64,000 nt of DNA, from the NCBI RefSeq assembly GCF_963676685.1, contig NC_092356.1, positions 36,270,001-36,334,000 on the forward strand, in the 5' to 3' direction. The notes beneath the pieces are model-generated. The model ran no database searches. It was given only the letters and a program-made list of their open reading frames with translations, and was not told where the DNA came from. Made by a program: the position numbers and the translations under genes. This DNA is from Mytilus edulis. Lineage: Eukaryota. This document shows positions 7,566 to 41,161 of this stretch, one piece after another (position 1 is the first letter of the stretch; every line of letters starts with the position of its first letter).

Positions 7566-8944
7566 AACAAGAGGCTCTCAAGAGCCTGAATCGCTCACCT
7601 TAATTCTTTTGGTTAAATCTCTCATCAATGATTATTTTGGCTTTTCAATTTATTTAAATGTTTTTTTGGATCGTCCTATTTTCTTCAAAAGCCAAAAAAA
7701 ATAATCATTTTCTCCTATGTTCTATGTTAGCCATAGGAGCTATGTTTCTTGACATACAAGGAAATAAAATATAAAATTTATACTAGATACTCTGAAACTC
7801 ATTTAGCCTAAGTTTGGCTGAAATTGATACAGCAGTTTCAAAGGAGAAGATTTTTTAAAGTAAGTCAACATGATGAACAAATTGTGAAAAAAGTTTTAAT
7901 AACTCCTTAAGGGGTCAATTGACAATTTTGGTCAAATTGACTTAATTGAAGATCTTACTTTGCTGAACATTATTGCTGTTTACAGTTTATTTCTATCTAT
8001 AATTATATTCAAGATAATAAACAAAAACAGCAAAATTTCCTTAAAATTATCAATTCAGGGGCAGCAACCCAACAACAGGTTGTCTGATTCATCTGAAAAT
8101 TTCAGGGCAGATAGATCTTGAACTGATAAACAATTTTACCCATGTCAGATTTGCTCTAAATGCTTTGGTTTTTGAGTTATAAGCCAAAAACTGCATTTGA
8201 CCCCTATGTTCTATTTTTAGCAATGGCGACCATGTTTGTTGATAGATCATAACTTCGGATACAATTTACAAACTAGATACCCTAAGGAACATTCAATTAA
8301 AGTTTGGAAGTATTTGGCCCAGTAGTTTCAGAGGAGAAGATTTTTGTAAAAGATTACTAAGATTTACGAAAAATGGTTAAAAATTGACTATAAAGGGCAA
8401 TAACTCCTAAAGGGGTCAACTGACCATTTCCGTCAAGTTGACTTATTTGTAAATCTTACTTTGCTGAACATTATTCCTGTTTACAGTTTATCTCTATCTA
8501 TAATAATATTCAAGATAATAACCAAAAACAGCAAAATTTCCTTAAAATTACCAATTCAGGGGCAGCAACCCAACAACGGGTTGTCTGATTCATCTGAAAA
8601 TTTCAGGGCAGATAGATCTTGACCTGATAAACAATATTACCCCTGTCAGATTTGCTCTAAATGCTTTGGTTTTTGAGTTATAAGCCAAAAACTGCATTTG
8701 ACCCCTATGTTCTATTTTTAGCAATGGCGACCATGTTTTTTAATAGATCAAAACTTCGGATACAATTTATAAATTAGTTACCCTAAGGAACATTCAGTTA
8801 AAGTTTGAAAGTATTTGGCCCAGTAGTTTCAGAGGAGAAGATTCTTGAAATAGTTTACGACGACAGACGACGGACGACAGACGACGACGGACGCCAAGTG
8901 ATGGCATAAGCTCACTTGTCCCTTCGGGACAGGTGAGCTAAAAA
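7566..8944. mobile_element. Helentron-associated (HINE-like) element with ~500-bp internal tandem duplication
   Basis: 5' hairpin AGGCTCTCAAGAGCCT and GCTCACCT; GACG microsatellite; 3' hairpin GCTCACTTGTCCCTTCGGGACAGGTGAGC; near-identical family member at 58157. Confidence 0.75.
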
Positions 8945-9373
8945 GATGTCAAGCATATTATTTTAACACATTGTGTTTCACATTTTAATATAGTGTGCCT
9001 AACATTTAAAAAAATTGGGGTTATCATTTTGATATATTGTGCTTAACATTTTACAATGTATGTTACTTTATAATGATGTTTTATAAATGTTTATAAATAA
9101 AACTATTTCTTCATTTCAGTTATTATGTAGAATCCCTGACGTTTTTTTTAGTGATTATACATAATCCCTGAAACTTTTAGTGATTATATATAATCCCTAA
9201 ACTAGCCAGTGATTCTACATAATCCCTGAAAATTTCAGGGATTCTACATAATCACTGATTATACAAATTCACTGTAACATATACACAATATAAGACAGAC
9301 AATATTCAAATATAAAATACATGTACCATTCTATTTAGAATTATGGGAGACTGTAAAATAATGTCTATATATA

Positions 9374-11310: not shown

Positions 11311-11441
11311 CAGTGGCGGATCCAGAACTTTTCCTAAGGGGGGGGGGCCGCTCCAGTCATGCTTCCATGATTCCCTATATAATCAACCAAATTTTTCCCA
11401 CGAAAGGGCCCCCCCCCCCCCCCCCCCTGGATCCGCCTATG
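11311..11441. mobile_element. Small CAG-ended MITE
   Basis: CAGTGGCGGATCCAG...CTGGATCCGCCTATG; 5-bp TSD ATTGA. Confidence 0.75.
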
Positions 11442-14520: not shown

Positions 14521-14711
14521 TGTCTAATACAACACTAGAGAGGACTCAACTTTATTATATGCATGTCCTCAATGTTCATGTAGTATTTGTGACTATAAAA
14601 ACGTTTAACAGTTATATATCACTGCGTGATATATATATATTCAAAATCTTATCTGGTATTAGTAGCTAGCAGTTACCTAGCTAGACATAAATTGAAAGCT
14701 GGATATGAGAA

Positions 14712-15101
14712 ATGAACCACGTAACTGAATTTAGTCTTGGTGCACTGGCAGCAGTGTGTGCAGCTTGTTTCACAAACCCTTTAGAAGTAGTGAAAACACG
14801 AATGCAGTTACAAGGCGAACTTAAAGCTAGAGGTCAATATACAATCTTCTATCGGAATACTTTCCATGCGTTATATACAGTGGCTAAATACGATGGATTA
14901 CGAGGAATACAGAGTGGTCTTGCCCCAGCATTGGGGTACCAGATATCTATGAATGGAACCAGACTTGGTTCTTTTCAAATTATGGTTGACATGGGACTAA
15001 CAGACAGTGTTGACTGCACTTTCTGTGGGTTTCTTAGAACTCTGCTGGCAGCGGGACTCTCAGGGGCAGTTAGTAATGCCGTCGGCAGCCCATTTTTCAT
15101 G
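14712..15101 (+). CDS. SLC25A35: Mitochondrial carrier SLC25A35/34-like, copy A, exon 1
   Basis: [44 protein letters not shown]; 130 codons; GT donor at 15102. Confidence 0.9.
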
Positions 15102-15789
15102 GTAGGTAAATATTTGTTTCTTTGGAATTTCATGTACGTACGTATTGCATTTTATAAAAGTGGTACAGTTTAGATGTTGCAAACTGTTATCAATTGTCAT
15201 TGAAAGTTTTGCAACTTATATCTTTTCTATTATGTTTGTCATGGATTGCTGCCTTTCGTATATTTAAGGATCCACATCATGAGACATGCTTTGACAGTTG
15301 TTTTATTTCGACATCGCTTTTCTCTTGAATATTCATTTTTTTTTAATGCATGAATTACATGAGCTTATATGATTTACATTCCGACAACGATAATAACTTT
15401 GTCCTTTTTCACTTTGATATAAGAATTTCACAAATAGGTCTTCTTGCAAGGTAAGATACATCTTTCCTGTTGTAACGTCGATTTTATTTTACTCAATAAC
15501 TGCATGTGCAAAATTAAGATTCTTATATATATAGGTTATTTTTTTATTTCTCATGGGGTTAAAGGAGCTCATGAATTTCACCCAAGATTAAGAACAAATA
15601 TTAGCTTTTGATTATCAGGTTTATACCAATGAATTTTTCTAGCATAAGCGGTTTTCTCAAAAAAATGTCAAAATTCTACCGCAGATGATTAATCAAAATT
15701 AAGAGAGAGTCTCAGAATAAAAACAAATGTTTGAGAGTCAATTTAAATGCTGGTGTCTGGCGTACCAAATCATAAGCCTGGTATTTTGT

Positions 15790-16140
15790 TTTTATGCCCC
15801 ACCTACGATAGTAGAGGGGCATTATGTTTTCTGGTCTGTGCGTCCGTCCGTCCTTCCTTCCGTCCGTCCGTCCGTCCGTCCGTCCGTCCGTCCGTCCGTC
15901 CTTCCTTCCGTCCGTCCTTCCGTCTGTCCGTCCGTTCGTTCAGGTTAAAGTTTTTGGTCAAGGTAGTTTTTGATGAAGTTGAAGTCCAATCAACTTCAAA
16001 CTTAGTACACATGTTCCCTATGATATGATCTTTCTAATTTAATTGCCAAATTAGAGTTTTGACCCCAATTTCACGGTCTACTGAACATAGAAAATGATAA
16101 TGCGAGTGGGGCATCCGTGTACTATGGACCCATTCTTGTT
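15790..16140. mobile_element. Short HINE-like element with (CCGT)n microsatellite (other copies 54653-54959, degenerate ~46614-46920)
   Basis: Terminal hairpin ATGCCCC...GGGGCAT; CCGT array; shared internal sequence. Confidence 0.75.
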
Positions 16141-16205
16141 TTTCTTAATTTACTACCCATATGGGTCGTTGTATATTTTTATCTCAATATTTTATCCATT
16201 CACAG

Positions 16206-16424
16206 ATCAAAACTCATATCCAGTGTAAAACCGATTCAAAGATAGCAGTAGGCTTTCAACATACTCATAAAACAATGTATCATGCAGTCAAAGAAATTGT
16301 GCGACAAGATGGCGTGAAGGGGCTCTGGAGAGGAGCACATGCTGGAACATTGCGAGGATTCATCGGCTCAGCGGCACAACTCGGAGCTTTCACTTCAACA
16401 AAAAAATATTTAATTTCTAAACAG
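16206..16424 (+). CDS. SLC25A35: SLC25A35/34-like copy A, exon 2 (GC donor)
   Basis: IKTHIQ...IAVGFQH...GLWRG...GSAAQL; 219 nt, same length as paralogue exon 2; CAG|GCAAGA donor. Confidence 0.85.
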
Positions 16425-16584
16425 GCAAGAAATAAGTCGAATATTTATAAATAAATAGATTTTTAAAAATATGATGATGTGTAGATTCAACAGTATAGCT
16501 AGGATAAAACATGAAACATCAGAGCAATATACGTGGACTTTAAATACATGGGCATAACAAAAAGAAACATACTTAAAACTTCTT

Positions 16585-16800
16585 AAAAGAGGGGTGAAAG
16601 ATACCATTCGAACTCATACATTAAAAATAAACTGACAACGCCATTGCTAAAAAGGAAAAAGACAAACAGACAAACATTAGTACACAAGACACAACATGGA
16701 AACTAAAAATAATAAGCCACACGAACCTCACCAAAAACTTATCTCAGGTACTCCGGAAGGGTAAGCAGATTCTGCTAAACATGTGGTACCCGTCGTGTTG
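16585..16800 (-). repeat. Penelope-associated 3' tail repeat (also 24505-24710 +, 29650-29880 -, ~32040-32200 -, ~6115-6200 +)
   Basis: Shared AAGAGGGGCGAAAGATACC...CTGACAACGCCATG...CCGGAAGGGTAAGCAGATCCTG-like sequence. Confidence 0.65.
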
Positions 16801-17043
16801 TCTCAGTGGTATGATATTTTACCTCAAGCTCAGGGGTCAGTGTCAGTTAAGTGGTCAATGTAAAGATAAGGAAACATATTGATGAAGACCCTGCAAGAAA
16901 GTTATGATCATTTCAACTTGGTTAAAGTAAAATCTAATGAACATTTGTTTTAAATTTCTGCCAAATAATAGCTCAAATAACGATGTTGCAGTAACTTATT
17001 TACAATTTGCCACCATTCGAATCTCGAGCTTTACTCTTTTCAG

Positions 17044-17361
17044 ATATTTGATGAGGACAGTATAATGATATCAATATTAGCAAGTATGGTTGGCGGAATT
17101 AGTTTGGCATTTTTCATGACCCCATTTGATGTCGTTTGCATTAGACTGTACAACCAAAGAACAACTGAAGCTGGAAAAGGAATGTATTATAAAGGCATTT
17201 CTGATTGTTTTAGAAAAACATATAGAAGTGAAGGAATAGCAGGACTTTATAAAGGTTGGGAACCATCATTGATACGAATATGGCCACACACGGTTTTGTG
17301 CTTAGTATTTTGGGATTGTTTTCGAGACACATATTACAAATGGAATAAATCAAGATCATAG
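17044..17361 (+). CDS. SLC25A35: SLC25A35/34-like copy A, exon 3 (308 aa total)
   Basis: ttttcag acceptor; MTPFDVVCIRLYNQ...GLYKGW...RIWPHTVL; TAG stop. Confidence 0.9.
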   Translation: MFDEDSIMISILASMVGGISLAFFMTPFDVVCIRLYNQRTTEAGKGMYYKGISDCFRKTYRSEGIAGLYKGWEPSLIRIWPHTVLCLVFWDCFRDTYYKWNKSRS

Positions 17362-17972: not shown

Positions 17973-19243
17973 GGGGCGCCGAATGGGACTCTTGTGGTTT
18001 TGTACAAAATTCAATTCTGTCATAACAAAATCATTTTAAATTTTTGTCTTACAAAACTATGTGCTACAGACTTGTTTTGTGAGAACTTCAATTTTGTGAT
18101 GACAAAATTCATTTGTGTAGACAAAATTCATTTTTGTCATGACAAAATTCATTTTTGTAGACAAAATTCATATTTGTCATGACAAAAGTCAATTTTGTCT
18201 AAAAGGTATGCAAATATAAACATATTTGCATACAAAATTGACTTGTGTTACCTGATATGGAAATTAAATCACAAAAGTCAATTGTGTGAGGTAAGATTCA
18301 ATTTTGTGAGGCAAAATTGACTTTTGTGAGACAAAATTGACTTTTGTGAGACAAAATTCAATTTTGTCAATTTTGTTGAGACAAAAGTCAATTTTGTTAA
18401 TTTTGTTGAGACAAAAATCAATTTTGTTGAGACAAAAGTCAATTTTGTTAATTTTGTTGAGACAAAAGTCAATTTTGTTAATTTTGTTGAGACAAAAGTC
18501 AATTTTGTCAATTTTGTTGAGACAAAAGTCAATTTTGTGACGACAAAATTCATTTTTGTGACGACAAAATTCATTTTTGTGACGACAAAATTGACTTTTA
18601 TGAGACAAAATTGACTTTCGTGAGACAAAAACAATTTTGTTGAGACAAAATTCAATTTTGTCAATTTTGTTGAGACAAAAGTCAATTTTGTCAATTTTGT
18701 TGAGACAAAAGGCAATTTTGTTAATTTTGTTGAGACAAAAGTCAATTTTGTCTCACAAAAGTCAATTTTGTCAATTTTGTTGAGACAAAAGTCAATTTTG
18801 TCAATTTTGTTGAGACAAAAGTCAATTTTGTCAATTTTGTTGAGACAAAATTCAATTTTGTCAATTTTGTTGAGACAAAAGTCAATTTTGTCAATTTTGT
18901 TGAGACAAAATTCATTTTTGTCAATTTTGTGTAACAAAAGTCGATTTTGTATGCAAATTAGTTCACAGAAACCAAACTAAACTAATTTGAATACAAAATT
19001 GACTTTTGTCGCCCAATTTTCAAATTAGGTAACAAAATTCAAGTCTGTGTAACAAAAATGAATTTTGTCATGACAAAAGTGACTTTTGTCCGCTGATAGA
19101 TAATTTTGTATGACAAAATTTTAAATTTGTAGTATGATACAAATTTTGTTAAACTGAACTTATTTTTGTTGAACAAAAGACACTTTTGTCCGTACAAAAT
19201 TGAATTTTGAGTACAAAACCACAAGAGTCCCATTCGGCGCCCC
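17973..19243. mobile_element. Foldback-like element with long TIRs and internal tandem array
   Basis: TIR GGGGCGCCGAATGGGACTCTTGTGGTTTTGTAC; internal array of GACAAAA/TCAATTTTG modules of 11, 21 and 32 bp. Confidence 0.8.
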
Positions 19244-21723: not shown

Positions 21724-22956
21724 TCAGTTTACCCCAGCAACGATGTCCATAAAGAAACTGAGGTTAGCAAGGAATAAAACGACACTGAATATTACAATAA
21801 AACATTTGTCCAAAAATCTACTGACATCTTTCCAAGAAACGTCATCCTTATCATCATTAGGAATACCGAGTTTTTCTGTTTCCTTGACGCCTTCGGCATG
21901 TCCGACTTGAATCCCATTGTTTTGACGCTTTTTACAGGGCCGACATTTCTTTGATGTGTTAACAAGACGTCGCCACATCGATGTGACTGGCTTTGCGTCA
22001 TCTCTATGGTGAATGACAAGACCTAAAATCGTGCAAACAACAATCAGCGAACTTATGGTCAAATCGGCGACGAGTTTTATTCCTACTGACGATAATCGTG
22101 GTGATGATGTCGATGGTAACGAATCAGAAACGATCGTCATAAAAACGGCAATAGACAATAAAAGAGTTATACTAAAACCAACACGCTCCCCTGAATCGGC
22201 CGGCAGAGCAAACACAAAAATGTTCAAAATTCCAAGTAGAATGATTGGAAATATTACATTGATCATGAAAAATGTTGGTTTTCTTTTGAAAGTCATCGAA
22301 ATATACAAGGCATTGACACTGCTTCCATTATATAACGTAGAGGAAACATAATCCCATTGTGGGTTCTCACTGTAGAAGGTTGTGTCAACTGTGTAAGATT
22401 GTATAAGTATACGAATTTCATTTGCGTCATATTGCCACGGTAGCACCATCATTTGACATGTCTGAGAATCAAAGGGAAAATAAGACACGTCGGCGTCACA
22501 TGCCATCTGAAAACTGTCTGCTGGACTCCAGGTAGCATCGCCATTTTCATAAAGTGATACCGTTGAACCTTCCAAAGTAATAACAACTCCTTCTTTGTAC
22601 GGATTTCCTAAAATAATATGTGGGGTCCATATGTGTTTTGTGGGCATATGCATATGTATATCACCACCCCCGTACGAATTCCGATCCCAAACAAGATTAT
22701 TATCTCTCCAGTTGATATTAAAAAATCCTGCGACAGAAAATAGTCCTGTATTTTCATCTAAATCTTGAAGGTTTGTGAGATAGAATTTGAATCCAACAGA
22801 TGTTGCCGTATTAAGGTCTGTTTCTGGACGAATATATTTGTAACTTCTGCTTACAAGATCATCGTACAGTGAAGACACATTTGCAAACGAAGCCGTATAT
22901 ACAGGATTAATCGTTCCAAAAATTACCAATGAGAAAATCAGTGTATAATACTTCAT
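21724..22956 (-). CDS. Intronless nicotinic acetylcholine receptor-like Cys-loop channel subunit (non-alpha, 410 aa)
   Basis: Signal peptide; IRP; Cys loop CDADVSYFPFDSQTC; M1 FFMINVIFPIILL; DSGERVGFSITLLLS M2; M4 LDKCF; no vicinal CC. Confidence 0.93.
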   Translation of the reverse strand: MKYYTLIFSLVIFGTINPVYTASFANVSSLYDDLVSRSYKYIRPETDLNTATSVGFKFYLTNLQDLDENTGLFSVAGFFNINWRDNNLVWDRNSYGGGDIHMHMPTKHIWTPHIILGNPYKEGVVITLEGSTVSLYENGDATWSPADSFQMACDADVSYFPFDSQTCQMMVLPWQYDANEIRILIQSYTVDTTFYSENPQWDYVSSTLYNGSSVNALYISMTFKRKPTFFMINVIFPIILLGILNIFVFALPADSGERVGFSITLLLSIAVFMTIVSDSLPSTSSPRLSSVGIKLVADLTISSLIVVCTILGLVIHHRDDAKPVTSMWRRLVNTSKKCRPCKKRQNNGIQVGHAEGVKETEKLGIPNDDKDDVSWKDVSRFLDKCFIVIFSVVLFLANLSFFMDIVAGVN

Positions 22957-23854
22957 TTTTTATTGTGGAAAATAGATATGAAAACGTTTACTTTTACACT
23001 GAACATTTAAATATTTTAAATAAAAATTTTAAATACCACCTGATTTGAGTTCTTTGTTATAAATGTATTCTATTTCTTATTCAACTGTTTTGAACCGTAC
23101 TAATATTGACTATTCCCAAATAAATTATTCAATTAAATGCACTCATATATCATAATTTAAAACCAAACAAAAAAAAAATTTGCCCTTCAAGTGTATTTTG
23201 TTTTTATATTATATATAAAATTATTAAAAACAGGCTTGTTAGAGTTGACATTGTTACCGGTATTCTTTATTTTTAAAGATATAAATGCTTATGTAAAAAT
23301 TAAATGTTAAAAACTAGTATCAATGCACATATAACTGAACTCGGTTTATTATTATCACTCAATGATCGGATGACCAAACCTACCAATTTTAATTTTTTTA
23401 GGGGGGGGGGAGGGGGCTAAAAAAATTAAATTCAAAGTATATCATAAATTTAAGTGAATTAAAATGATGAGATGAATCAGTATGTCTGAAACGCTTTTGT
23501 ACAGTAACCAACACCGTAAAAAATATTTAATCGAAGGGCGGAATTAATACGATATTTCAGAGCTTTCATTTCCTATCATGATTTCCTTGAAAGATGGTTT
23601 TAGATTACAAAACAGCTATTGAAATATAAGTTGTTGAGCCTGGTAATTGGACCAGCATATATTCTATACAGTGTATACTATCGTCCAAAATACAGAGAAG
23701 ATATTGTACAAGGTACATACAATACGATCCTTAAAGAACAAGCCACACGATCGTGTGATTAAAATGTTTTTTTTCTCGAGATGCTGTCAAACATCAACAC
23801 GTTATGGTAGGATGATACCAAGAGGTAATAAGAACAGTCAAACAACAAAAACAG

Positions 23855-24368
23855 GACAAAGACATTACAAACGAAAGACGACCAATAATCGACAAAGGCA
23901 TTTCAAACGAAAGACGAACAATAATCGACAAAGGCATTTCAAACGAAAGACGAACAATAATCGACAAAGGCATTTCAAACGAAAGACGAACAATAATCGA
24001 CAAAGACATTACAAACGAAAGACGAACAATAATCGACAAAGGCATTACAAACGAAAGACGAACAATAATCGACAAAGGCTCTTCAAACGAAAGACGAACA
24101 ATAATCGACAAAGACATTACAAACGAAAGACGAACAATAATCGACAAAGACATTACAAACGAAAGACGAACAATAATCGACAAAGACATTACAAACGAAA
24201 GACGAACAATAATCGACAAAGACATTACAAACGAAAGACGAACAATAATCGACAAAGGCATTACAAACGAAAGACGAACAATAATCGACAAAGGCATTAC
24301 AAACGAAAGACGAACAATAATCGACAAAGACATTACAAACGAAAGACGAACAATAATCGACAAAGACC
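23855..24368. repeat. 36-bp tandem repeat, ~14 copies
   Basis: Unit GACAAAGACATTACAAACGAAAGACGAACAATAATC. Confidence 0.95.
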
Positions 24369-25221
24369 TTTTTAATCACCTAAAATTGTTGCTTGTTCTT
24401 TAACTATTTTATTGTATATAGTACTACTAGTATGCGCAATGTATTTTCTGTGTTCTTTTTTTATGTTTGCGGTATCAATTGCATAAAGCCATTCTTTCTT
24501 ACAGCTGCGTACCCTTCCGGAGCACCTAAGATCACCCCCAGTTTTTGGTGGGGTTCGTGTTGCTCAGTCTTTAGTTTTCTATGTTGTTTTTTGTGTACTA
24601 TTATTTGTCTGTTTGTCTTTTGTCTTTTGCGCTTTTAGCCATGGCGTTGTCAGTTTATTTTCGATTTATGAGTTTGACTGTTCCTCTGGTATCTTTCGCC
24701 CCTCTTTTTGTATCAATATCAGCCTGATATTATACATTATTCAAGAATCTATTCTGAATCAATTGTGTTGTTTGCCTGTTTTTAATCACCCTCTGTATCC
24801 TCTTAAATACGTTACGGCATCGAACAATACGAGCGGGAAGTGATGTTTTACAGTATATATACGTGAGTGTGTACATATGATAAAGACTAAGCTTGATGTT
24901 TGCAGAGTAAACCACGAAGTCAGTGTTACTTTGGTAGCTAACTTTAGAAAAAATAACAATAGTTATTGTTAGTGGATTTTATAATGGGACAAGAAACAAA
25001 ATTATATGAATGTAAAACTAAATGTGACCAGTTTGTAACAAAATTACGTCTCAAGCTGATAAAGAAATAATCGTTCATAGTGAAAAGGGGAGATTTGTGT
25101 GCACAATAAAGTGGTATAGTTTGTGAGAACATTATTAATACATAAAATCATATTATGGCTTTAAACAAGCATGTCAGTCAGTTATTTGTGTATACCAAAA
25201 CCTCTTAATTTTTGTAAACCA

Positions 25222-25350
25222 TGCGGTATGGGCTTTGCTCATTGTTGAAGGCCGTACGGTGACCTATAGTTGTTAATGTATGTGTCATTTTGGTCTCTTG
25301 TGGACAGTTGTCTCGTTGGCAATCATACCACATCTTCTGTTTTATATTCA
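25222..25350. repeat. Short interspersed repeat (also ~13005-13090)
   Basis: Shared TGTGTCATTTTGGTC...GTTGTCTC.TTGGCAATCATACCACATCTTC. Confidence 0.7.
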
Positions 25351-25504
25351 CCACCTAATGACTGTAAACAGTCAGACTATCTTTGTTTTAATTGCTTGTA
25401 TGTTGTTAGTATTTCTTCGTAGGAATCGCTGTTGTTGTCTGATATGTACCATAGAATTTAAATGATGCATAGCAATATTATACACCCATTCTGTACTGTA
25501 AAAT

Positions 25505-25750
25505 TAAAAGTAAAATAACAAAAATACTGAACTCCAAGGAAAATTCAAAACGGAAAGTTCCTAATCAAATGGCATAATCAAATGATAAAACACATTAAAC
25601 GAATGGACAACAACTGTCATATTCTTGACTTGGTACAGGCATTTTCAAATGTAGAAAATGGTGGATTCAACCTGGTTTTATAGCGCTAAACCTCTCACTT
25701 GTACGACAGTCGCATCAAATTCCATTATATTGACAAAGATGCTTGAACAA
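25505..25750. repeat. Interspersed repeat (also 30530-30950)
   Basis: Shared AAAATACTGAACTCC.AGGAAAATTCAAAAC.GAAAG..CCTAATCAAA. Confidence 0.7.
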
Positions 25751-26235
25751 AGTTTTGAATTCCTATCATTCCTTTTTATGAATTATTTATGCATTACATT
25801 TAAAAATTACTTACAAAAGTACTGACCTCCAAGATACATCCTATTATGGGGAAGTAAAATAAAACAAGTTCCGACTATATCAACCAACTGGAATATGAAA
25901 GTTGTTTTCCAGACTATCCGTCTGTAAAACAATTATTATATTCCAAACTTGGTACAATCATTTACCGAAGAAAAGAATGCATGGGTCGAAAATGGTTTTA
26001 TAGCTAGCTAAAACTCCCACTTGTATGACAGTTGTTAATAGTTCAGTTTTATTTAAACTAAATCATTTCTCTTATGAACTCGTCCCTCGTGAGAATTGGT
26101 GTGTTTGTAAAAGTCTAATTAACAAATCACCAACACATTTTAGACAGCTACAACAATAGTGTAACATTGCATATTTAGTACAAACAAAAGTAAAATACAT
26201 ATTTTATTAACTTAGTAATAACGAAAGCAAGGAAC

Positions 26236-27498
26236 CTAATTGATACCAGCAACGATATCCATAAAGAATCCAATATTAGCTATTATCAAAATACTGCTGA
26301 ATAAGACAATCAAACATTTATCTAAGAATCCTCTTATGTCTTTCCATGTGACGTCATCTTGTTTTTCATCTTTACCATATGTATTCTCGTTAGTTTTATT
26401 TGCAAAATCTGTAAGTGCTATTCCATTGGGGATTTTGTTTTTTTCGGCATGTACAGCATTCGTTTTAGACTTTCTACAATCCAAGAAACATTGCCGAAAC
26501 CTCACAAAACACTTCCAGAATCCTGTTGCAGGAACATTATCAGTTCGATGATGAAGAATTAGTCCCAAGATAGTGCAAACCATCATTAATGCACTGATTA
26601 TTAGGTCAACACTCAATTTAACGACCACTGATGATAGTCTTGGAGAAGACGTATTAGGCAGTGAATCTGCTATGATTGTCATAAAAACGGCAATTGACAG
26701 CAAGAGTGTTATACTGAATCCGACACGTTCTCCAGAGTCAGCAGGTAACACGAACACAAACATATTCAACACTCCAAGTAGTATAATCGGAAATATAATG
26801 TTAATCATAAAAAATGTAGGTCTTCTTTTGAATTTCATGGTAAAATGGACACCGTTTGTACTACTTTGTGTATACACGTTTGATGAAACGTAATCCCACG
26901 TTGGATTTTGATTGTAAGAAGACAAGTCTACTGTGGTTTGTTTCAAGGTCACATTTATTTCACTTGCATCGTGCTCCCATGGTAGCAGCCAGATCTCACA
27001 TGTCTGAGAATCAAATGGAAAATAAGACACATCAGCATCACAAGACATCTGGTAACTATCGGCAGGGTACCAGTACGCTGAACCGTCAGAGTAAACACGG
27101 ATTGTAGATTGCTGTAAGGATATCACAATAGCATCTGCATAGGGGTTTCCAATAAGCAGATGAGGTTTCCACATGTATCCCGACGGAATACGGATTGAAT
27201 CTGTGTTATCATAATATGTTGGATCCCATGTTAAATTATTGTCCTTCCAATTTATTTCAAAAAACCCTGTTACAGAAAATTTGCTGTTGTTGTCATCTAG
27301 ATCTTGAAGGTTCACAAGAAAGAACTTGAACCCAACTGTTGTTGCTGTATTAAGATCTGATTCTGGTCTGATATAACTGTAATTGTATGTAGTCAATCGG
27401 TCGTACAGCAAGGTTACGGACGAATGTGAGGCAGTGAGGCTGAATTGTATATTACTGATAAACGTTATATAAATTACTGCTAGTTCACAAAACCTCAT
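26236..27498 (-). CDS. Intronless nAChR-like Cys-loop channel subunit, tandem paralogue (420 aa from ATG 27498)
   Basis: Signal peptide MRFCELAVIYITF; identical Cys loop and M2; no vicinal CC; clear paralogue of 21724-22956. Confidence 0.93.
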   Translation of the reverse strand: MRFCELAVIYITFISNIQFSLTASHSSVTLLYDRLTTYNYSYIRPESDLNTATTVGFKFFLVNLQDLDDNNSKFSVTGFFEINWKDNNLTWDPTYYDNTDSIRIPSGYMWKPHLLIGNPYADAIVISLQQSTIRVYSDGSAYWYPADSYQMSCDADVSYFPFDSQTCEIWLLPWEHDASEINVTLKQTTVDLSSYNQNPTWDYVSSNVYTQSSTNGVHFTMKFKRRPTFFMINIIFPIILLGVLNMFVFVLPADSGERVGFSITLLLSIAVFMTIIADSLPNTSSPRLSSVVVKLSVDLIISALMMVCTILGLILHHRTDNVPATGFWKCFVRFRQCFLDCRKSKTNAVHAEKNKIPNGIALTDFANKTNENTYGKDEKQDDVTWKDIRGFLDKCLIVLFSSILIIANIGFFMDIVAGIN

Positions 27499-27934
27499 GA
27501 TTGAAAGGTTCACTCACTACGATAAACAAGAATCCGAAGATAATTTGTTTGAATTTATTAAAATAGATTGCTAATAGTTTGGTTGCAATTTACTTTTTAA
27601 CTTACCTATTATGAAGGTTTTTAAACCATGAAATACACAAACGATCATTTAAATATACTTGACCTCTATTGAAATTTATTGTTCCGATTCAAAAACATAA
27701 ACATTATAGGTATAAAACGTAAAAGATATTCGTGTATGACGTACGTTACCTTAAATTCAACCCAACTTGAGGTAATTTCACCTGTAACGATCTTCTTTTT
27801 TATTTCATTGACTTTTTTGTTTTTCTTTGAATAAAAAAGAATTGTCTTGTCGATATATAGATAGAACTGCACAATAAGCTATATTGAATCGTTTCATAAT
27901 TTTCTTCTGCTCTGGTCATCTCATTATATGCAGT

Positions 27935-29322
27935 CAGGGCCGTAACTGCCTATGAGGCAGGGGAGGCAACTCAGGGGAGGGAGTTTGCCTCCCCTGAATT
28001 TTCTACACCAATTTTTTTTTTTTGAAGTAATAAAATAAAATATTGACAATATTTACACGAATAAGTTGAATTTATATTATAAACAACACAAGTTTACAGT
28101 TTTAACACTGTTATCTTGATACGTGATAGCCTATGTCTGTCATTTTTCGGATTTTCGATCGAAAGTAAACCGTTTCAGTACTTGTTTTTTTTTCGTGTGG
28201 CCGTCCGTCTGTTATTCAGTATTGAGGCCCTCAGGGGGTCAGTATTCGTATGAGAACAAATATGAAACTTTTCATCGGCTTTCGAAAATTTTGAATAAAA
28301 ACTTAACTATTCACATTTGTGCTGGGGCTCATTTATTTAAGCAGAGGAAGTTCCTTTTGTATTGTGAATCTTTTAAGATATCGGAAATTCGTTACCGGCT
28401 GAATCAGCTGTTGGATCGTTTTTTAAGTCTCCCAATCGTACGAGAACAATATGGTCAATGCCTTAGAAGTCAAACACTCCCATTCGTTGTAGCAGGGGGT
28501 TTCTATACTAAGTTTATACTAGAGTAGTATATAAATGTCGAAGAATATAACTTAAACACGATAATTAATACATTAAAAGTTCGGTTAGATTTTAAATAGA
28601 AATACGCAATATTTCGCTAAACAAATTAACTTTATCAGGCGTGTGCATCTCTCAAGGTGAAATCGGATGCATGACAAAAAAATATTTATGTAGCTTAATC
28701 TATACAAGAGTTGAGGAAAAGTGTATATATATATATATAGAAAGTCTCTGGTTGTAGTCATATGATTATATACATGTCTTTTCAGCTTTCAACAATATTG
28801 AAAGATCCTCAATAAAATAAATATCTTGCGTTCTATAATCTTGCTTTATCCATATTATATGTCTTTTAAACTTACCAGTTTCTAAAAAAAAATTCTTTAA
28901 ATACTGAAAATACAGATAATAATTGTTTGCATAAAAATTGCTCCAAGGATCAAGCAAAACTGACCTTTCTTAAAGTAAGAAAATTGAAAGAAAACGTGTA
29001 GTTTTAGCAATATCTTTTGAAAAAAAAATCCGCGATCACAATGTATTTTATGTTAAGAATTATAGGTCAAAGTACAGCATTCAAGACAGAGCCTTGGCTC
29101 ACTCTGAACAGCAATCTCAACTTGTTTTTGCATAAAAGTTGCGGAGCAATACTGATGTTTCTTAAAGTAAGGAAATCGAAGGGAAACGGGTAATTTTTAG
29201 CCAATGACTGGGAGAAAAAAATCGGCGGGGGGCTACGCCCCCCAACCCCCTATCAAGGGGGCCTCATTCGGCGGCCCCCAAACCCCTGCCTCCCCTGAAT
29301 TCGAACCCTAGTTACGGCCCTG
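27935..29322. mobile_element. CAG-ended hAT-like MITE
   Basis: TIR CAGGGCCGTAACT; 5-bp TSD GCAGT. Confidence 0.8.
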
Positions 29323-29649
29323 GCAGTGTGTCGATTAAACTGATTCTAAAGGGTTCTACTGGAATTTGAATATTGAATATCAAATGGTCTATAACATATA
29401 CTGAAAAAAATTAAGCAATTGTAAATAATTTTGATAAAATCAAAATGATTTATACAACACTACATGTTGCTGTTATAAAGCTGTTTGAAACACAATTTCA
29501 CGACGTGTTTTTGTAAAATTTTGCATCTAAGGATGTCGACATCAATTAATCAACTTGAAAATGAACTTACGTGTGTCAGAAAGTAAAAAAATTAAAAGCT
29601 TAACTTCCGAAAAGGTTTTTTTAATTGAGTATGTCCTCCTTATATACTT

Positions 29650-30330
29650 AAAAGAGGGGCGAAAGATAATAGAGGGACATTCAAACTCATAGATCAATTA
29701 AACTGACAACGCAATGGTAACAAAAGAAAAAGACAAACAGAAAACAGTAGTTCACAAGACACAACATAGGAAACTAAAGAATAAGCAACACGAACCCCAC
29801 AAAAAACTGGGGTTGAACTCAGGTGATTCGGTAGGGTAAGCACATCCTGCAGGTCATGTGGAACGTATCCGTCGTGTTGCTCATGTTATTATAAATATTC
29901 TAATTCGGTAGCTGGTCACATTCATGGAAAGGGAACGGGATTGTAGTTACAACATTCGGAATATATATATCCGATATCATCTATACGTGAAACGCGGATT
30001 TTCCGTAACGGTCACCCAACTCGTGTTGGCGTCCTTAAAATTTAGGGAGGGATGATTTCAACTTCACCATTTGGAACTCTTGGTTTAATAGTTTCTATGT
30101 GAGCAGCAATCCTCTTTCAATGAAATCATGATTGGAAATAAGCCCGGGAATATCGTATCAAAAGGGAGATATACACCGTTTGCAGGCGCTGCTAAAATGC
30201 TGCTACACAGAAATGAACAATTCACCATTTGGGAAGCTGAAACATCTCTTTTGTCGTTGAGATTTGGTTTCAACCTATACCCTCATTGTCAATTTATAGA
30301 TGTAAGTGAAGATATAAGGTAGACTTAACT
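29650..30330 (-). pseudogene. Penelope-like RT C-terminal remnant with 3' tail
   Basis: KPNLNDKRDVS...FLCSSILAAPANGVY, homologous to the other remnants. Confidence 0.6.
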
Positions 30331-31295
30331 ATATCTGTTTTATTCTTTTTCTCTAGTTCGATTGGATAGATGAGTTCAACATATAGGCACCAAATTTTGA
30401 ATTTTTTAGTGAGAAAAAAACATCTAAATAGCTGAAAGTATAGTTAAAGGAGATTGCTACCGTCTTTTCTATCTTACTATTTAATTTTTTTTTTTATCAT
30501 TTTCCAAATGTTAGAAATTTTAGAAAAAACTAAAATCACAAAAATACTGAACTCCGAGGAAAATTCAAAACAGAAAGTCCCTAATCAAAGGCAATATCAA
30601 ATGATAAAACACATCAAACGAACGGAAACAATTGTAATATTTCTGACTGGGTGCAGGCATTTTCAAATGTAGAAAATAGAAGATTGAACCTGGTTTTATA
30701 GCGCTGAACCTCTTACTTGTATGAGAGTCGCATCAGATTTCATTAAATTTACAACGATGCGTGAACAAAACAGACATAATATGCAAGATTGTCAATAAAG
30801 GGGTAAAGTAGTCATCTCCGTGTCACAATCTCAATTAGAACAAAAACAAACAAATATTTAACAAAGAAGCACAAAAAAGCATCTATCAAATTTTACAACC
30901 ACATCCATTGCTTACTTATACATGTATATGTATTTTAAATCAACCCATAAAAGATTGAAATATTTGAAGTCCTGTGACTGAATGGCAAGGTTCACATCAA
31001 CTCTAGTGAAGAGTAGCGTGTTTGACGTCAGAATGTAAATGCACATTACTGTCTTTGTAAGTAGCCTATGCAGTCTCTGTTGTAAATACCTAACCTACGC
31101 CATTTTTGAAATTTAAAATTGTACAAGAGTTGGTGGGTTCGGCTAAATTGTATCAACTTTTAGGATTGTTATAGTAAATTCAGAATATATCATATATTTC
31201 ATTTTATATCAAAATCATACTGATTAAGGATATCTGTTATCCGAAATATTTATACAAATTATATTTAATGTTTCTTTTTAAGGTCTTTAGCTTAA

Positions 31296-31887
31296 GGTGG
31301 TATGGATGTCTTCCTCCATCTTGGATTGTAAAAAACAGAGAACCAAAGGTCCAGATTTTCCATCAAGTTAGCAAAATTTGATGCAGGAATGCAGATATTT
31401 AATGTGAATTTTCATTTATAAGAACCAATTTATAAGAATTTAACTTATAAATATTAATATTTTTGCAAATGTTAATTATTTTTGGTTGTTTTTAATTTGT
31501 TTTAAATAAGCATTTCCAGGGGAGGTAACTCTAAAACAGTGCATTTTCTGTAGGATTCTACATGGAATTTTCCTTTTATGTATTTTAGCCGAGAAAAACG
31601 TACGGTGACCCTATCTTTTCTTTTGATATTCTCACAGCAGTGTCTGAAAGCTATCTTTTCCTGAAGTATTTAACAATTCTATCTTTTTGTTTAGTTTCTA
31701 ATCACAAAATGGTTTTTTTTCCTGTATAATCCATACAAAATGTGTCATTTTATCTGGTCCTGTAGCTTGAGAAAATGCGCGGTGACCTATCATTTTTATT
31801 ATATTTTCCAACATGTATCAATAGATACTACGTTTTGGCAAAGTATGAACAAATTCTATCATTTTTATTTTAGACTCCCATACCACC
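31296..31887. mobile_element. TTAA-flanked Kolobok-like MITE
   Basis: TTAA-GGTGGTATGG...CCATACCACC-TTAA. Confidence 0.75.
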
Positions 31888-32559
31888 TTAAAAGCGTAAA
31901 ATTAATGGTTTTGGGGTATCTTTAAATTCAAAAATTTACTCTTTGGTCAATTTCAAACAAAACATATGGGAGTGTACGTGATTCTGTTAATGCAAGTTCA
32001 CAAGAGACCATAGCTACCAAATTTAAATTCAAACCCATAAGTCGAAAATAATTGACAACGTCATAACACTGAATAAAAGAAAAGACCAAATGACAAACAA
32101 CATCATATAAACAAAGCATATAAAACTAAAGACTAAGCAACACGAACCCAACCAAAAAACTGCTGAGGTTCTCAGGTGCCCGGGACGGGTATGCAGATCC
32201 TGTTGTAACTTTTTTATAATTTCTGTACATGTATTCTTGTCTTTCATTTTTATGCAAATGCCTAGCTGTATGCCTTTTTGTGTTTCTTTCTTTCATATGA
32301 AGTGGCTCGAAAGGAATCTGTGACGTACCCATCCATATTACAGAAGTGGGAAATACAGATACAGATAAATCCCGTCGTTGTATTATTTTTCCATTGTTAA
32401 TGATTGTTAATATATTTGTTTGTTTTTACAGTGAATAAGATGATAACACAATGTTGACTGCTGTATCCCTATTATAATGATTATTGACATTTTAACCTAT
32501 TATGTCTGTTTGTTTTGTTCACACATCGTTGTCAATATAATGGAATTTTATGCAACTCG

Positions 32560-33200
32560 GGGGAGGTGGAATCGTTGTTTCGACAAAGGGAACATGTCCA
32601 TTGGCATCTATGAAACAGAATATTATTCCATAATGGTCAACCGACTAGTAAAAACATCCGTAAAAATTACGAAGGGATGATTTCAATTTCAAATCTTAAA
32701 AAAAAGCTTCCGTGTGAGCAGCAACCCTGTAACAAGGAAATCGTACAATAGGACATACAAACCCTGGAATATCGTACGAACTAGGAGATACATGAACACT
32801 CTTTGCAGGCGCTGCTGGAATGCTGTTACATAGAAATGGAAAGTTCACAATGTGGCAACTAAAATCAACTCTTTTTGTCGTTAAGTTTTGTTTTCAACCC
32901 ACCCTTATTTTCAATTTTAAATGTATCTTTTATCTTACGTTCTTTAGGATAGATGCGTTCAACATAGTCACCGTGACACTTCGAATTATTTAGTAAAGGC
33001 AGCATCGATATATAGTGGTAAGTCAAGTTAGAGGATAATGCCAACTTCTCTTCTTTCTTTCTTGGAAACTCTTGTATAAAGTCAGCTTCATATGAACATA
33101 GGAACAAGTCGATAAGAAAATGAGCACTGTTTGTTGCATTAGGAATGCCAATTCTTTTTTTTAAACACGTCTTCCAAATGTAACAAATATGTTGTCAATC
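32560..33200 (-). pseudogene. Penelope-like RT remnant
   Basis: LFLCSYEADFIQE...KLALSSNLTYHYI...GDYVERIYP...LKTKLNDK. Confidence 0.7.
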
Positions 33201-33853
33201 AAGTAATGATGCTTTTTTGTAAATGAAAATTTAAGATGCAATTGATTTGGTATAGGTACACTACAATAAAAAAAGTGATGTACAGAGTACACTTTTACAA
33301 AGGGAGCTATTTTCTATTGAACTGACTAATGATGAAGGATATTGCCCAACTTGATGACTTCGAACCTTTGTTGGCAAACAAATTTTAGAAAGCCGGATAT
33401 TTTCTCCTTTTCTTCTTTTCCAATGCTTATATATAGGTTTGAAAAGTCAGTGACTGGCAATATCCGAGTGTTTTTGTTTGGATAAATGGGTGAGAATGAA
33501 GTATTTAAAGGGTTCATAAAAAAAAGGTTCGTGCAAATTATGAAGAACAGCCAACTGCTGTTGTTTAAATGGCAGAAAACCATCATGAAGACTTAATGGT
33601 GTATAATGACGATTATCCGTGACGACTTCATCTACGTCGAAGAGTAGACTAGTTGAAAATGTGCATAACATTCACCGAGCTGCAGGAAGGACTAGATCTA
33701 ATAATTTTATCATAAACTTTATCATTGCAACCATACTTGTGGCGTCGAAGGTTCCCAATTCTTCGATGGTCTTCCTGTTGTCTACGGAGATGTGTTGCAA
33801 GATGAGAGATGTTAGTCCTATGGTATATATTTTCAATGATTTGAATTTGCATA

Positions 33854-34542
33854 ACGTAACGGTACCCAAATTGCACAGAGTACCCAAATTGTACCTATTT
33901 AGCAAAAGTAGCAGCGAAAATCTTACAAGATTTCATAGAGACTAAACAATTTGTATTTTTATGATTTGATACTAAGCACATCTTTTAACATAGGTAAAAC
34001 TATTTAAATATGCACAAAACGTTCACAGTATTTATCAACAGATGAAGTATTTACTGAAAAGCAAAATGTACTGAAACGTCGCCATGCGACGTCATCAAAA
34101 CGTCATCTTTTTAAAATGAGCAAATACAATATTTTACCGTGAAGTATCCATTTAAAAAATAATGAAGAGTAAGCATGGACTAATATCCAATTGTTCAAAA
34201 TATTTGAAGAAATTAAACAAAAGCTCTGTTATTAAACTTTTGACGATGTGAATTTAGGCATGGATGCAATTTGGGTACTCCTCATTTCAGAACAAGGACG
34301 TATAACTAACATATATAATAGTCTAATATACGTCCTTGTTTCAGAATCATTGATGGTTTGGAGGTCAGTTTAGACCAATTTTTCTATGATTCCATATGGA
34401 ATAAAAATCAAATTGGTTTACCTTTATAATAAAGAAGGATACGGCTACAAAATAAACACAGAATGGACATTTTTGTCTTTATCATAAAAAAAATGTAGAT
34501 GAAAAAACTGTCAAAATAGGTGCAATTTGGGTACCGTCACGT
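33854..34542. mobile_element. TA-flanked (Tc1/pogo-like) MITE
   Basis: TIR ACGTAACGGTACCCAAATTGCAC / GTGCAATTTGGGTACCGTCACGT; TA TSD. Confidence 0.8.
34293..34338. mobile_element. 46-bp hairpin micro-element
   Basis: TIR CAAGGACGTATA/TATACGTCCTTG; 8-bp TSD TTTCAGAA. Confidence 0.7.
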
Positions 34543-35370
34543 TAGACATAATTGAAAGATCAAGCTGATTAAAATGCAGGTGAGGCAATTTAGCTTGAAA
34601 TTTTGTTGATTTCTGGTCTATGGCCGCACATACGTTTTATTAAGCCTTCTTTTCGTTTCAACGACATGTACCAATGATCCGCAAAGACACATAAAAAGTC
34701 AGTATATCTATTAATCTAACGTCTCAATAAGCATGATCCAGTATAAGCATTCGCCGTTTTTTTTAAGTTGATCATACCATAGACTCACTGGTATCATTGT
34801 TTTATTTTTCAAAAGAATTTTTTCAAGACTTTATCTTCTAATAAAAATCAAACTTTCAAGTTGGGAATAAGACAAAATTCACAGTCTATTTCAGTAAAAA
34901 TCACCTATTTTTTTTTTTTGCAAAACTGGTAGCTTGAAGAGATTTTTTACTTTTTATATCATTTTGGTAAATTATATGAAAACATGTCAGTTTAGCAACA
35001 AGCTGAGCTGGTTACCGCAACAAAAAAAATATAAAAAAATCCGTTTTTCATAATCCCTATCGCGTACCGTATGGGTTTTGTCAGTTATAGACAACAATCA
35101 CATTGACGCTTTGATAAAAAGTTGCTTTGCATTAAAACACGCATAAGAGGTAGAATTCCCGGCATGGACAACCATCGATTTCGCCGGTAGTAATTCTATT
35201 GCGCTTTCATACATTGTGTGGTAAATATTATATGTCATTAATTCTCTTCTAAACACGAAGGTCTTTAAGGATCCGGGTCGTATCGCCAAGATTTTCGAGC
35301 TGACCCATAGTCGTGACGTCCCTATGAAAAAGCCATCCCAAGATCAACATCTCAACTTTCAAAAGCTTAA

Positions 35371-35959
35371 GGTTCATCATAACAAATGGACAAATATGGC
35401 CGTATTTTTACCTCAAAAACTACTCTGTGTGCAGACTTACCTGTGCTGTTTGGAAAGTTTTAATGCCTAGCATCCACTAGATATATAAAAGTTAAATGCA
35501 TTTTGTGTTTAAGAAAGATAAAATCTTTGTTGGTTTTTGATGGGCATTTTTTTTCCTTTCTGAAGAAGGTTTAAAAATAAACAAACACCTGAATTACTTT
35601 GATACTGTCCACTCACTGACTTAGATAAACTCTTTAACTCACCTATAGTTGTGAAGATACCTGTTGTCCATATCAATTAAGGACAATCAAAACAATACAA
35701 ACCGGTTTTTTACCTAAGGGAGCATCTCATAGTTGTACCACAACTTAGTTAATTTTCACACCTTTTGCATGAAGGAAAAAAAATGCCCATCAAAATCCAA
35801 AAGAGATTTTATCTGTCTGAAACACAAAATGCTTTTAACTTTATTATATCTAGTGGATGCCAGGCATTAAAACTTTTCCAACTTCACAGGTAAGTCTGTA
35901 CTCTGAGTAATTTTTGGCATGTCAATACAGCCATATTTGTCCGTTTGTTATGATGAACC
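35371..35959. mobile_element. Foldback MITE with ~200-bp inverted arms
   Basis: GGTTCATCATAACAAATGGACAAATATGGC...GCCATATTTGTCCGTTTGTTATGATGAACC; TTAA/TTAT flanks. Confidence 0.75.
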
Positions 35960-36110
35960 TTATTTATATAACTTATAAGACTATAATTTGTATACAGACA
36001 ACGTAAGATCCATTGAGCTTTTAAATCTTCTTCTTCTTCTGCGTCTTACATTAACATGCATTCCACCTCTGCGCACTCTTGTGAATTGTCACATTTTCAT
36101 GATTTTACTA

Positions 36111-37911: not shown

Positions 37912-40677
37912 ATTTTACTACTCATGCCAGCTAGTGACCCTTTAAAGCACATTAAGCTGAAAAACATTATAGTTCAAAGCATTAATTTTTTTTTAGGCAT
38001 TTCGTGATGATAAGAATAGGGTACCCCACATGACCAATGAGGGTGAAACATTTAAATGTTAATGTATAATGTTAGCAATACACATTTTACTCTTTTTGAT
38101 GTGGTTACAAAGTGAGATTTGACGAATAATGATAAAAAGTTAAGGCTCATTTGACGCTAGTGAAAAACAGACTTTTGACATTTGACAATAAAGGGCATTC
38201 ATACATTTTCCCTCTTTCATCAGCATGTACTATCATTTTAGGTGACAATAAGTATAAAAAAAATAGGTTAAAATCGTTGTTTTCTCTAAAACTCTTGCCT
38301 TGCGGTCATAAAACTTTTGAGCACGATTTATGTACTCAGACTCAAGAATCAACCAATCAAAATACTGGATTTTGTGTTTCGAGCATGATTTTTTTGCTTT
38401 GAGCACTGAGCAAAGTTTTATGACTTCAACCCCTGGGTTAATTCCAAATCTTTGCATCGGTGCAGAGTTCTTGATATTTTTGTTCCTTGTGGTCCAGACT
38501 TGTGATGTAAGATTTAGCAATGAATCACATAATCATTAATACTAGTTATGTATAAATAATTTCCTGATTCATTGTTAAATCTTAATATGGAGACGAAGTC
38601 CCCAATAACAGTAGAAAAATCAATAAAAAAAAATTTAAAAAAATCGGGAAAATTTTCCCGAAATTTTCATTGTACTATTAAACTCAAAATCAGGAAATTT
38701 TTTTGGATGTCATGATTTAAATTTCCGCATCTGCGCAGAAATCTATAATGTACTTCCTTTTTCCGGTCTCGTATGTATGAAACTTTGAGTAAAATATATA
38801 TTTATCAGTCTAGTATAAAATAGCAAGGAACGCAATACCAATTTCATTTTTAATTATTTCTTGATATGAAAAAACATTACCTGATGATAGCATTTCTTTG
38901 TTTACATTGCATATGACGTCATAACTAAAATCCCTAACAACAGAACCAAAATCGGAAACGTTATGGTATTTCCGTTTCTTTTTTTTAACAAATATTTAAG
39001 TTACAAAAAAATAATTCATACAGACTTCGTCCCCATTTACAGGTAATGCCTGCCTCATATTAAATCTCATATTTGTTATAAATCAAAAACAACAACAACA
39101 ATATTTTATTTTAAGAGGGTTACACAGTAAGTTATATACCTAATCTTCCCTGAGGCCCTCATCATAAAAAATCATAAACAAAATGCAAAACTATACATTG
39201 CATACATCATATATCATTAGTATAAAAGTCAAGTATGTTAACAATTTATGCTCTATACAACTTGATAAAATGTTAGGAAAAAAATAATTATGATGACATA
39301 ATCAGTTTTCAATATTTTTTCAACATTTATTTAGGCCTACAGTATAAAAATAGTAATATGTAGTAATGATTGCAATTAGGAACCTATTCATCAAGACCAT
39401 ACAACAAAAATGTGTACACTTGCAGAATTCTGTACAACCTTCATCAATGATCAAAACTCATACTTTTTGTTCTTATTTGTACATATGTACATAAGCAGTA
39501 AACTATAACATGCACAAGAAATGAATGTACTAAGTAACAAAAAAATTGAATTGTTTTTTTATGTTTTAAAATCACTTACCATCACTACAAATTTGTTAAT
39601 TTGACTTCACTTTAGCGCAAGGCCAACTTTTAAAAAATATGCATAAGATGTCCGTAACTTATAAGTAAAAAATAATCAGACTGTCCGTAACTTTATTTTC
39701 GGATGTGGGTAACTTTTTTTTTTAAATTGTAAGATTAGCAATTTCAACACTTAAAGGACAATAAACACTAGCAAACCCCTTAATTATTACACAGATTTAT
39801 ACAATAACGATATGCTTCAAACTAAACAAGAGAAAAAAGCAAACCAGAGTGTCACAGATTTTCCATTAAATTAAAAAAAATTATTCCCAGGATAAAACGG
39901 GATCTGACGATAGCAACATGTATCTAACATTCTTCTAGCTTTTTAGATTGTTCACTGATGAGTGCTTGGCCTGTGTAGCCGCGGAAAAAATTGATATCCT
40001 TTCCTTTAAATGATTTCTGAATTGTTAGCCAAAACAATATGGTCTCTTCACTATATCTAGTGTGATGTTTTGTTGATTGTGAGAAAAAAAATCCCAATAT
40101 CTAGGAGTAGATGGAAGGCTATATTGTTGAACAGGTGTCAGTTTATTATAGCAATAAAGGTAGATTTAAAATCTTCTAAAAGTTTCATTGACCCCAGTGA
40201 TTCAATAAGATCGGGTATCTAATCATACATATCTTCTTTAGAGGTTTGGATTGATTCATTTATGTTTTTCTGCTAAGGATTGACCTCCGAACTTGTTCTC
40301 CTAAGGTGATTTACATATGTTTACTATAATGTAATTTCTACAGTTGGAAATGGTGAGATTTATAACCTGCATGTCATGATTTATCATCTAAAACTTAAGC
40401 AGTTAACAATCTATAAAGCCAGTAGAATGTAAGATGCATTAATTTTGCCGTACAATTTTCTACATAAGAAAATGGCAGTTGTTATCCATTCGGTTGAGCT
40501 TTGGACTTTTCCATTTGATAAGAGACTTAAGTTACCCACGGCCGTTTAAGCACAGTGACTTGTAGACTAACTGTAATATATCATGTATATATTCCATTAC
40601 ATTACAATGTATGTTTGAAACTTTACAGGTTCAAAATGACAAAGTGATTGTTACAGAACATCCAGTGCCCATACAAC

Positions 40678-41070: not shown

Positions 41071-41161
41071 GTAAAATATACAAATTAAATATCTCAAAAT
41101 AACTGGCCCCTGCCATGCCTGCTGAAGTTAAATGAATTTAAGAATTATGAAATAACATTAA

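Follow-up and report, generated by a model that had tools for sequence, protein, structure and literature searches.

A tandem pair of intronless nicotinic receptor-like genes in Mytilus edulis: ordinary members of a divergent bivalve family and candidate chemosensory channels

A 64-kb stretch of the Mytilus edulis genome (contig NC_092356.1, positions 36,270,001 to 36,334,000; hereafter the window, in whose own numbering coordinates are given) carries two neighbouring genes that encode intronless subunits resembling those of nicotinic acetylcholine receptors (nAChRs). Both lie on the minus strand: gene A (21724..22956) encodes 410 amino acids and gene B (26236..27498) encodes 420. They are 3.3 kb apart, and their products are 57% identical (231/403). 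A preliminary description of this DNA, made from its letters, had taken both to be intact single-exon open reading frames (ORFs), and so they are: neither contains an internal stop, and contigs from sequencing runs pass unbroken through ORF B and 56-82 nt of its 5′ flank. For A, the uninterrupted stretch covers the coding sequence only. Each protein contains full Neur_chan_LBD and Neur_chan_memb domains (Pfam PF02931 and PF02932), and both genes have orthologues in related mussels. A is laid out as a signal-peptide-like N-terminus, a ligand-binding domain (LBD) and the transmembrane (TM) helices M1-M4. In general, an LBD with a 13-residue Cys-loop followed by four TM helices places A and B among the subunits of pentameric ligand-gated (Cys-loop) channels; the Cys-loop itself (Cys153-Cys167 of A; 22456..22500, minus strand) is the same in B at 15 of 15 residues. 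The AlphaFold2 model of A, whose mean pLDDT is 81, finds its best structural matches among nAChRs (Foldseek; VIA Z 29.5 to alpha7, at 27% identity). The ESM Atlas returned generic Cys-loop clusters only, and a representative protein search gave 4681 proteins at E<=1e-30, without names, which were not used further.

The acetylcholine site is strongly altered in both subunits. Site residues were read against human alpha6 and canonical subunits of the mussel's own genome, all aligned, using the standard nAChR numbers (Tyr93, Asp89, Trp55, Trp149, Tyr190, Tyr198). Gly117 stands at the position of Tyr93 in loop A (PHIILGN/PHLLIGN), Phe78 at that of Trp55 in loop D and Val/Thr at that of Tyr198, and loop C is short and devoid of the vicinal cysteine pair (Cys-Cys). 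In effect, four of the five canonical elements of the site are gone, and the one left is the loop B tryptophan, Trp174 at the Trp149 position. The changes in loops A, C and D and the retained tryptophan had been described before, and every motif then quoted is present in the translations; His113 at the position of Asp89 had been missed. The residues that define an alpha subunit (Cys-Cys, Tyr190/Tyr198 and Tyr93) are lacking from A and B, and names of the type 'alpha-5-like' in databases are labels assigned automatically from the best hit. The span from the beta9 tryptophan to the arginine before M1 is 24 residues in A and B versus 32 in 11 of 14 canonical alpha exons, with loop C shorter by 8 residues than in canonical subunits. 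Given that one of five site elements is left beneath a short lid, the pocket most likely binds a ligand other than acetylcholine. Loop C comprises residues 204-218 in each protein (22303..22347 in A and 26845..26889 in B, minus strand), with an N-glycosylation sequon in A, at Asn210, that B lacks. This sequon (22327-22329) is kept in all five A orthologues and in two unnamed relatives (P0004 and P0006), and loop C sequons occur at 26 of 127 family loci. A glycan at loop C could shield the pocket, as in toxin-resistant muscle receptors.

By contrast with the pocket, the pore is conserved. In the usual prime numbering, both subunits have Glu -1′, Thr 6′, Leu 9′, Val 13′ and Asp 20′; in A this segment, read from the sequence and the family census, occupies 22123..22188 (minus strand). 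Glu at -1′ and the lack of Pro at -2′ form a cation-type signature, which is one of sequence only. The earlier statement that the GER/M2 pore is identical in A and B is right for every pore-facing position but not for M2 overall, which matches at 20 of 22 residues. Likewise, the claim that differences concentrate in the binding loops stands in part: loops F (38%), C (47%) and E (50%) fall below the LBD value of 57%, whereas loops A, B and D are 60-78% identical and the M3-M4 loop is the most divergent region, at 27%. Moreover, the identities of LBD and TM regions for A and B (58% and 88%) show the same asymmetry as those of the canonical alpha paralogues L123 and L125 (58% and 93%). The complementary face of A is built of Tyr59, Phe78, Asn80, Thr142 and Ser144, and that of B of Phe59, Phe78, Glu80, Tyr142 and Tyr144. 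Since these faces differ, A and B would prefer different ligands, and in B the aromatic character of the face (Phe59, Phe78, Tyr142, Tyr144) hints at a hydrophobic one.

How far these features are particular to A and B can be judged from a census of the same genome (1.37 Gb). A search with A gave 359 candidates, of which 102 were scored, and one with the Pfam model gave 494, of which 150 were scored. All 102 from the first and 40 more from the second were taken, and these 142 loci comprise 127 divergent loci, 14 exon-sized loci and L103, a canonical subunit without introns. After removal of six divergent loci whose frames were broken or partial, 121 were left to be examined; family counts are lower bounds. 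A single frame from the N-terminal LBD to M4 is found in 114 of the 127 divergent loci, and tandem arrays are common, for instance six hits at 82.45-82.52 Mb of contig C2 and five at 68.60-68.68 Mb of C13. Cys-Cys occurs in none of the 121 intronless divergent genes, Tyr93 in 1, Trp55 in 11 and Tyr198 in 34, while the loop B tryptophan is found in 100, Glu -1′ in 111 and Leu 9′ in 120; the exon-sized loci, chosen by their match pattern before being read, have Cys-Cys in 14 of 14. The loop C span is 26 residues in 66 of the 121 genes and 24 in 8. Thus, the features flagged in A and B belong to the whole family, and the pair are ordinary new members of a known orphan family, not special ones.

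Between 99 and 217 nAChR genes per bivalve, intronless, tandem and mostly non-alpha, have been described, with a complete principal site in only 13 of 132 oyster genes and with LBD diversity proposed to widen the range of ligands (Jiao et al. 2019, PMC6896357). The preliminary description was correct in assigning A and B to this expansion: their coding sequence is intronless, they are in tandem, they have the LBD and TM layout and they nest with scallop, oyster and clam members. There is no categorical difference, although their loop C is at the short end of the range. Altered ligand use and a sensory role for the family are already proposed in print. No functional study of these mussel genes was found in the literature searched, which mostly excluded subscription papers.

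Several other loci in the census have features of their own. L103 (G000:C7:23934500-23936900) is a canonical beta-type subunit with a 545-residue open frame and is itself intronless; consequently, the lack of introns alone is no marker of the divergent family. Two basal intronless groups (L104, L106, L108, L109 and L114; L111, L112, L117 and L140) combine a long loop C span (30-34) with the absence of Cys-Cys, and might represent steps on the way from canonical subunits to the family with short loops, although long branches meet there. Three canonical Cys-Cys exons (L130, L131 and L132) have a PAK motif before M2, an anion-channel signature, and are candidate acetylcholine-gated chloride channels.

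Among species, A and B each have one orthologue in M. edulis, M. galloprovincialis, M. trossulus, M. coruscus and M. californianus, with accession numbers that are adjacent or near-adjacent. Named homologues of A are Mytilus proteins, 88-97% identical. The orthologues form two clades, of which that of A follows the species grouping. Loop C of A is invariant in 5/5 orthologues; nevertheless, positions 59, 80 and 142 of its complementary face vary (142 being Thr, Phe or Lys), as do 78 and 175-177 of B. In a 172-row FastTree and a quick 32-row IQ-TREE, A, B and their unnamed relatives make up a subfamily with full support. Its named members are all from Mytilus, and A and B are about 35% identical to the nearest paralogues in their own genome. 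This subfamily lies within a clade of scallop, oyster and clam proteins, compared as proteins whatever their intron state, and apart from the canonical alphas and L103. The canonical controls are partial exons, the root is given by a canonical outgroup only and many deep nodes are unresolved. The unnamed subfamily members include P0004, P0006 and a cluster of 48 (P0007), which have no counterpart among the scored genome hits; in P0004 and P0006 the loop C span is only 22.

These trees bear on the possibility that A and B are accessory subunits that bind no ligand themselves and tune the kinetics or calcium permeability of acetylcholine-gated heteromers. The absence of Cys-Cys is what defines non-alpha subunits, at least 14 canonical alpha-type exons encode possible partners, and a relaxed pocket with a conserved pore and no detected positive selection (see below) would be expected of a non-binder. 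Nevertheless, the phylogeny with mollusc nAChRs, which had been recommended as a check, indicates that A and B are not relatives of the beta-type L103, as their grouping with it is rejected (approximately unbiased test, p=0.006). L103 resembles them in having a loop B tryptophan, a cation pore and neither introns nor Cys-Cys, but this real beta-type subunit retains Trp55 (Phe78 in A and B), Asp89, the SWTY motif and a full-length loop C with a 32-residue span, and groups with the alphas. In addition, at least 121 divergent genes are a poor ratio to 14 alpha exons, and an invariant loop C in A is not what a non-binding subunit would lead one to expect. An accessory role is accordingly judged rather unlikely.

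With respect to selection, silent sites are saturated between A and B (proportion of synonymous differences, pS, 0.68-0.88), and in M1-M2 the nonsynonymous proportion (pN) is 0.06 against a pS of 0.84, which supports purifying selection on the pair. Rates within the family were taken from 32 close, non-overlapping paralogue pairs picked from the tree. The ratio of nonsynonymous to synonymous rates (dN/dS) is 0.18 (0.14-0.23) in M1-M3, 0.30 (0.26-0.35) in the LBD outside the loops, 0.43 in loops A-F and 0.54 (95% bootstrap 0.39-0.72) at 18 predicted pocket positions, which were chosen by homology after the alignment had been viewed. Between A and B themselves the pocket is also less conserved than the LBD (pN 0.39 vs 0.26), the reverse of canonical alpha pairs, where pocket pN is equal to or below that of the LBD in 4/4. 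A scan made without the pocket list places positions 177-179, 80, 170, 211, 212, 216, 193, 142 and 59 among the fastest, and many of the fastest sites are in or beside loops B, C, D, E and F.

Pocket dN/dS is raised yet stays below 1, and a site-wise test, proposed with the original observation and here run family-wide, does not reveal positive selection. No class with dN/dS above 1 appears in family-wide codon site models (M2a vs M1a, likelihood-ratio statistic of about 0), which were fitted in a purpose-written implementation, to pairs only, and with sites shared across the family, so that a signal specific to a subfamily is diluted. M8 is preferred over M7 (p=0.024), but its extra class is only 1.007. 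Either tuning at sites specific to a subfamily or a release of constraint may lie behind the fast pocket, as the results fit both.

Transcription could be examined for B only, because the read coverage spans 24400-36100 and gene A lies outside it. Four runs were compared there: three of probable RNA, each from a different study, and a larger one that is DNA-like. B has a transcript-like footprint (25965..27580, minus strand) made of unbroken contigs from the three probable RNA runs: 25965-27554 at depth 18, 26124-27401 at depth 37, and 26287-27580, in two pieces, at depth 6-9. Their RNA status is the tool's guess, and contigs cannot show true ends or strand; nevertheless, unique intergenic bins have depths of 0-4 in these runs versus 10-28 in the larger one. 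No splice joint is seen inside the B footprint in the contigs of the three probable RNA runs. An intron in the 5′ untranslated region of B (~27517-27606) was considered and discarded, the contigs being unbroken to 27554 and 27580. Uniform short contigs of ~1.86 kb that encode A orthologues were rejected as evidence of expression, because flanking repeats could trim DNA contigs to like lengths.

That A and B are decaying, functionless retrocopies would account for their intronless structure; more silent genes are reported among intron-poor family members (PMC6896357), and 7 of the 102 scored family hits have a stop inside the match (95 have none). However, orthologues that are intact and full length in five species largely refute this idea, against which the low pN of M1-M2 and the transcript-like cover of B also speak, and it is very improbable.

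Known receptors with altered ligands offer points of comparison. Cephalopod chemotactile receptors (CRs), such as CRT1 and CRB1, are likewise intronless and nAChR-derived, with an altered acetylcholine site (PMC13174522) and a fast pocket; but whereas A and B are known from sequence, CRs have ligands that have been measured, are expressed in suckers and show positive selection at pocket sites (10.1101/2025.03.03.641191). CRT1 relies on aromatic residues in its pocket, and these are under positive selection (10.1101/2025.03.03.641191; 10.1101/2025.10.28.685082). No CR chain ranks among the best 60 PDB matches to A, to its M1-M3 segment or to the family profile, comparisons that long branches can distort. 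Structural alignment to A gives Z 22.3 for CRB1 and 21.2 for CRT1, at 23% identity versus 27% for alpha7, but Z is no measure of kinship, since GABA-A chains also reach 24-25. A CR-like clade that includes bivalve sequences has been reported, so A and B may share ancestry with CRs instead of having converged on them, and independent ligand shifts and an ionotropic chemosensory role have been proposed for divergent clades (preprint PMC13174522). The orphan homopentamer Alpo4 of Alvinella is also lophotrochozoan and devoid of Cys-Cys, and reportedly shows no acetylcholine response; it differs from A and B in keeping the loop D tryptophan and two loop C tyrosines (PMC10338036), and is 22% identical to the A model. 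Finally, the DopC dopamine-gated channels are nAChR-derived cation channels with a changed ligand, but they keep YXCC in loop C and an SWTY-type loop B (10.1101/2025.10.31.685654), neither of which is present in A or B.

The last comparison is relevant to the idea that A and B are cation channels for an internal signal other than acetylcholine (a paracrine metabolite, amine, lipid, steroid or immune cue), acting in gill, gonad, haemocytes or embryos. The structural evidence for it is the same as for external chemosensing. A conserved one-to-one pair in which A has the same loop C in all five species would suit a fixed ligand, the family is expressed before a nervous system forms and after infection (PMC6896357), and a dopamine-gated clade derived from nAChRs does exist in molluscs. 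By contrast, that clade retains the YXCC that A and B lack, the pocket positions listed above vary among close species and more than 100 genes would exceed any known transmitter set. An internal ligand is thus considered somewhat unlikely.

Gating by ions or physical state (protons, Zn2+, Ca2+, salinity), or a constitutive or background conductance, with a vestigial pocket in either case, has Cys-loop precedents in ZAC, GLIC and the pH-sensitive SsCl, which are among the fold matches. Expression in the family changes with salinity, temperature and exposure to air (PMC6896357), and pocket constraint is relaxed. Nevertheless, the loop B tryptophan persists in 100 of the 121 members, the model and sequence of A are nearer to nAChR and 5-HT3 than to ZAC or GLIC, and the Leu 9′ gate is intact, so that such gating is quite improbable.

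External chemosensing by A and B is plausible, and it is quite possible, if only tentatively held, that their subunits form cation channels opened by an external cue. Such subunits would assemble, alone or with other family members, into cation-selective pentamers. The usual interface between subunits, with Trp174 of loop B retained and the short loop C as an open lid, would bind a small molecule other than acetylcholine, likeliest a cue that is carried by water or present on surfaces and is encountered by an exposed epithelium. The conserved Cys-loop and M2 would then couple binding to opening of a pore for Na+, K+ and Ca2+, and the cell would depolarise. Ion selectivity, acetylcholine insensitivity, ligand class and cell type are all predicted here. 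The cation-type pore signature, intact throughout the family, supports this account, and more than 100 intronless tandem genes have the typical look of a chemoreceptor family. Expression of bivalve nAChRs is highest in gill, where ChAT is reported not to be expressed (PMC6896357). A broader version is more doubtful, although possible: that well over 120 mussel ionotropic chemoreceptors were built, independently of CRs, from a retroposed nAChR whose loop C was cut and whose pocket was freed while the pore was kept, A and B being an old conserved pair tuned to two different water-borne or surface cues (for example biofilm, algal or conspecific metabolites).

There are several points against a chemosensory role. 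As no codon class exceeds 1, the fast pocket may reflect lost constraint. The dN/dS values come from other family members, not from A or B orthologues; the pocket positions were picked after alignment, and rapid evolution is usual in exposed loops. Unlike the young arrays, A and B form a one-to-one pair that is old and stable. No compound tried on the related orphan Alpo4 is reported to have evoked a current (PMC10338036), and expression of the family also in embryos, in gonad and after infection points to non-sensory roles (PMC6896357).

The surroundings of the pair contain no third gene of the intronless nAChR-like family within the 64-kb window. Weak matches at 24673-24840 and 11311-11382 were dismissed as family genes, as they match non-family parts of two queries and lie in or resemble repeats. 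Two paralogous mitochondrial-carrier genes (Pfam Mito_carr; presumably SLC25A34/35-like), at 14709-17361 and 40648-46515 on the plus strand, have matching exons that are 54-60% identical; since they flank A and B on the opposite strand, the receptor pair sits within a carrier tandem. Between A and B is a 36-bp tandem array of 14.2 copies (23855..24367), which is not part of the receptors and from which the spurious repetitive ORFs at 23764-24375 and 23794-24333 derive. It is one of three satellite-like arrays, the others being at 18087-19200 (units of 20-30 bp) and 56244-56651 (42 bp). A 1.1-kb dispersed repeat occurs twice (7714-8948 and 58321-59489, 85% identity), and Rfam gave zero matches in the window.

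Why bivalves carry 100-200 nAChR-like genes is an open question, which the A/B locus alone does not settle. The census, with Cys-Cys in none of 121 genes and the weakest constraint in the pocket, makes the published hypothesis sharper but does not prove it. As candidates for a test A and B are well suited, being intact, single-copy and conserved in five species, with the same pore and different predicted pockets. Should the family prove to be a repertoire of chemoreceptors, it would stand as a second large example of a receptor for neurotransmitters that became a sensor of the environment, and it would offer molecular entry points to the study of settlement, feeding choice and valve closure.

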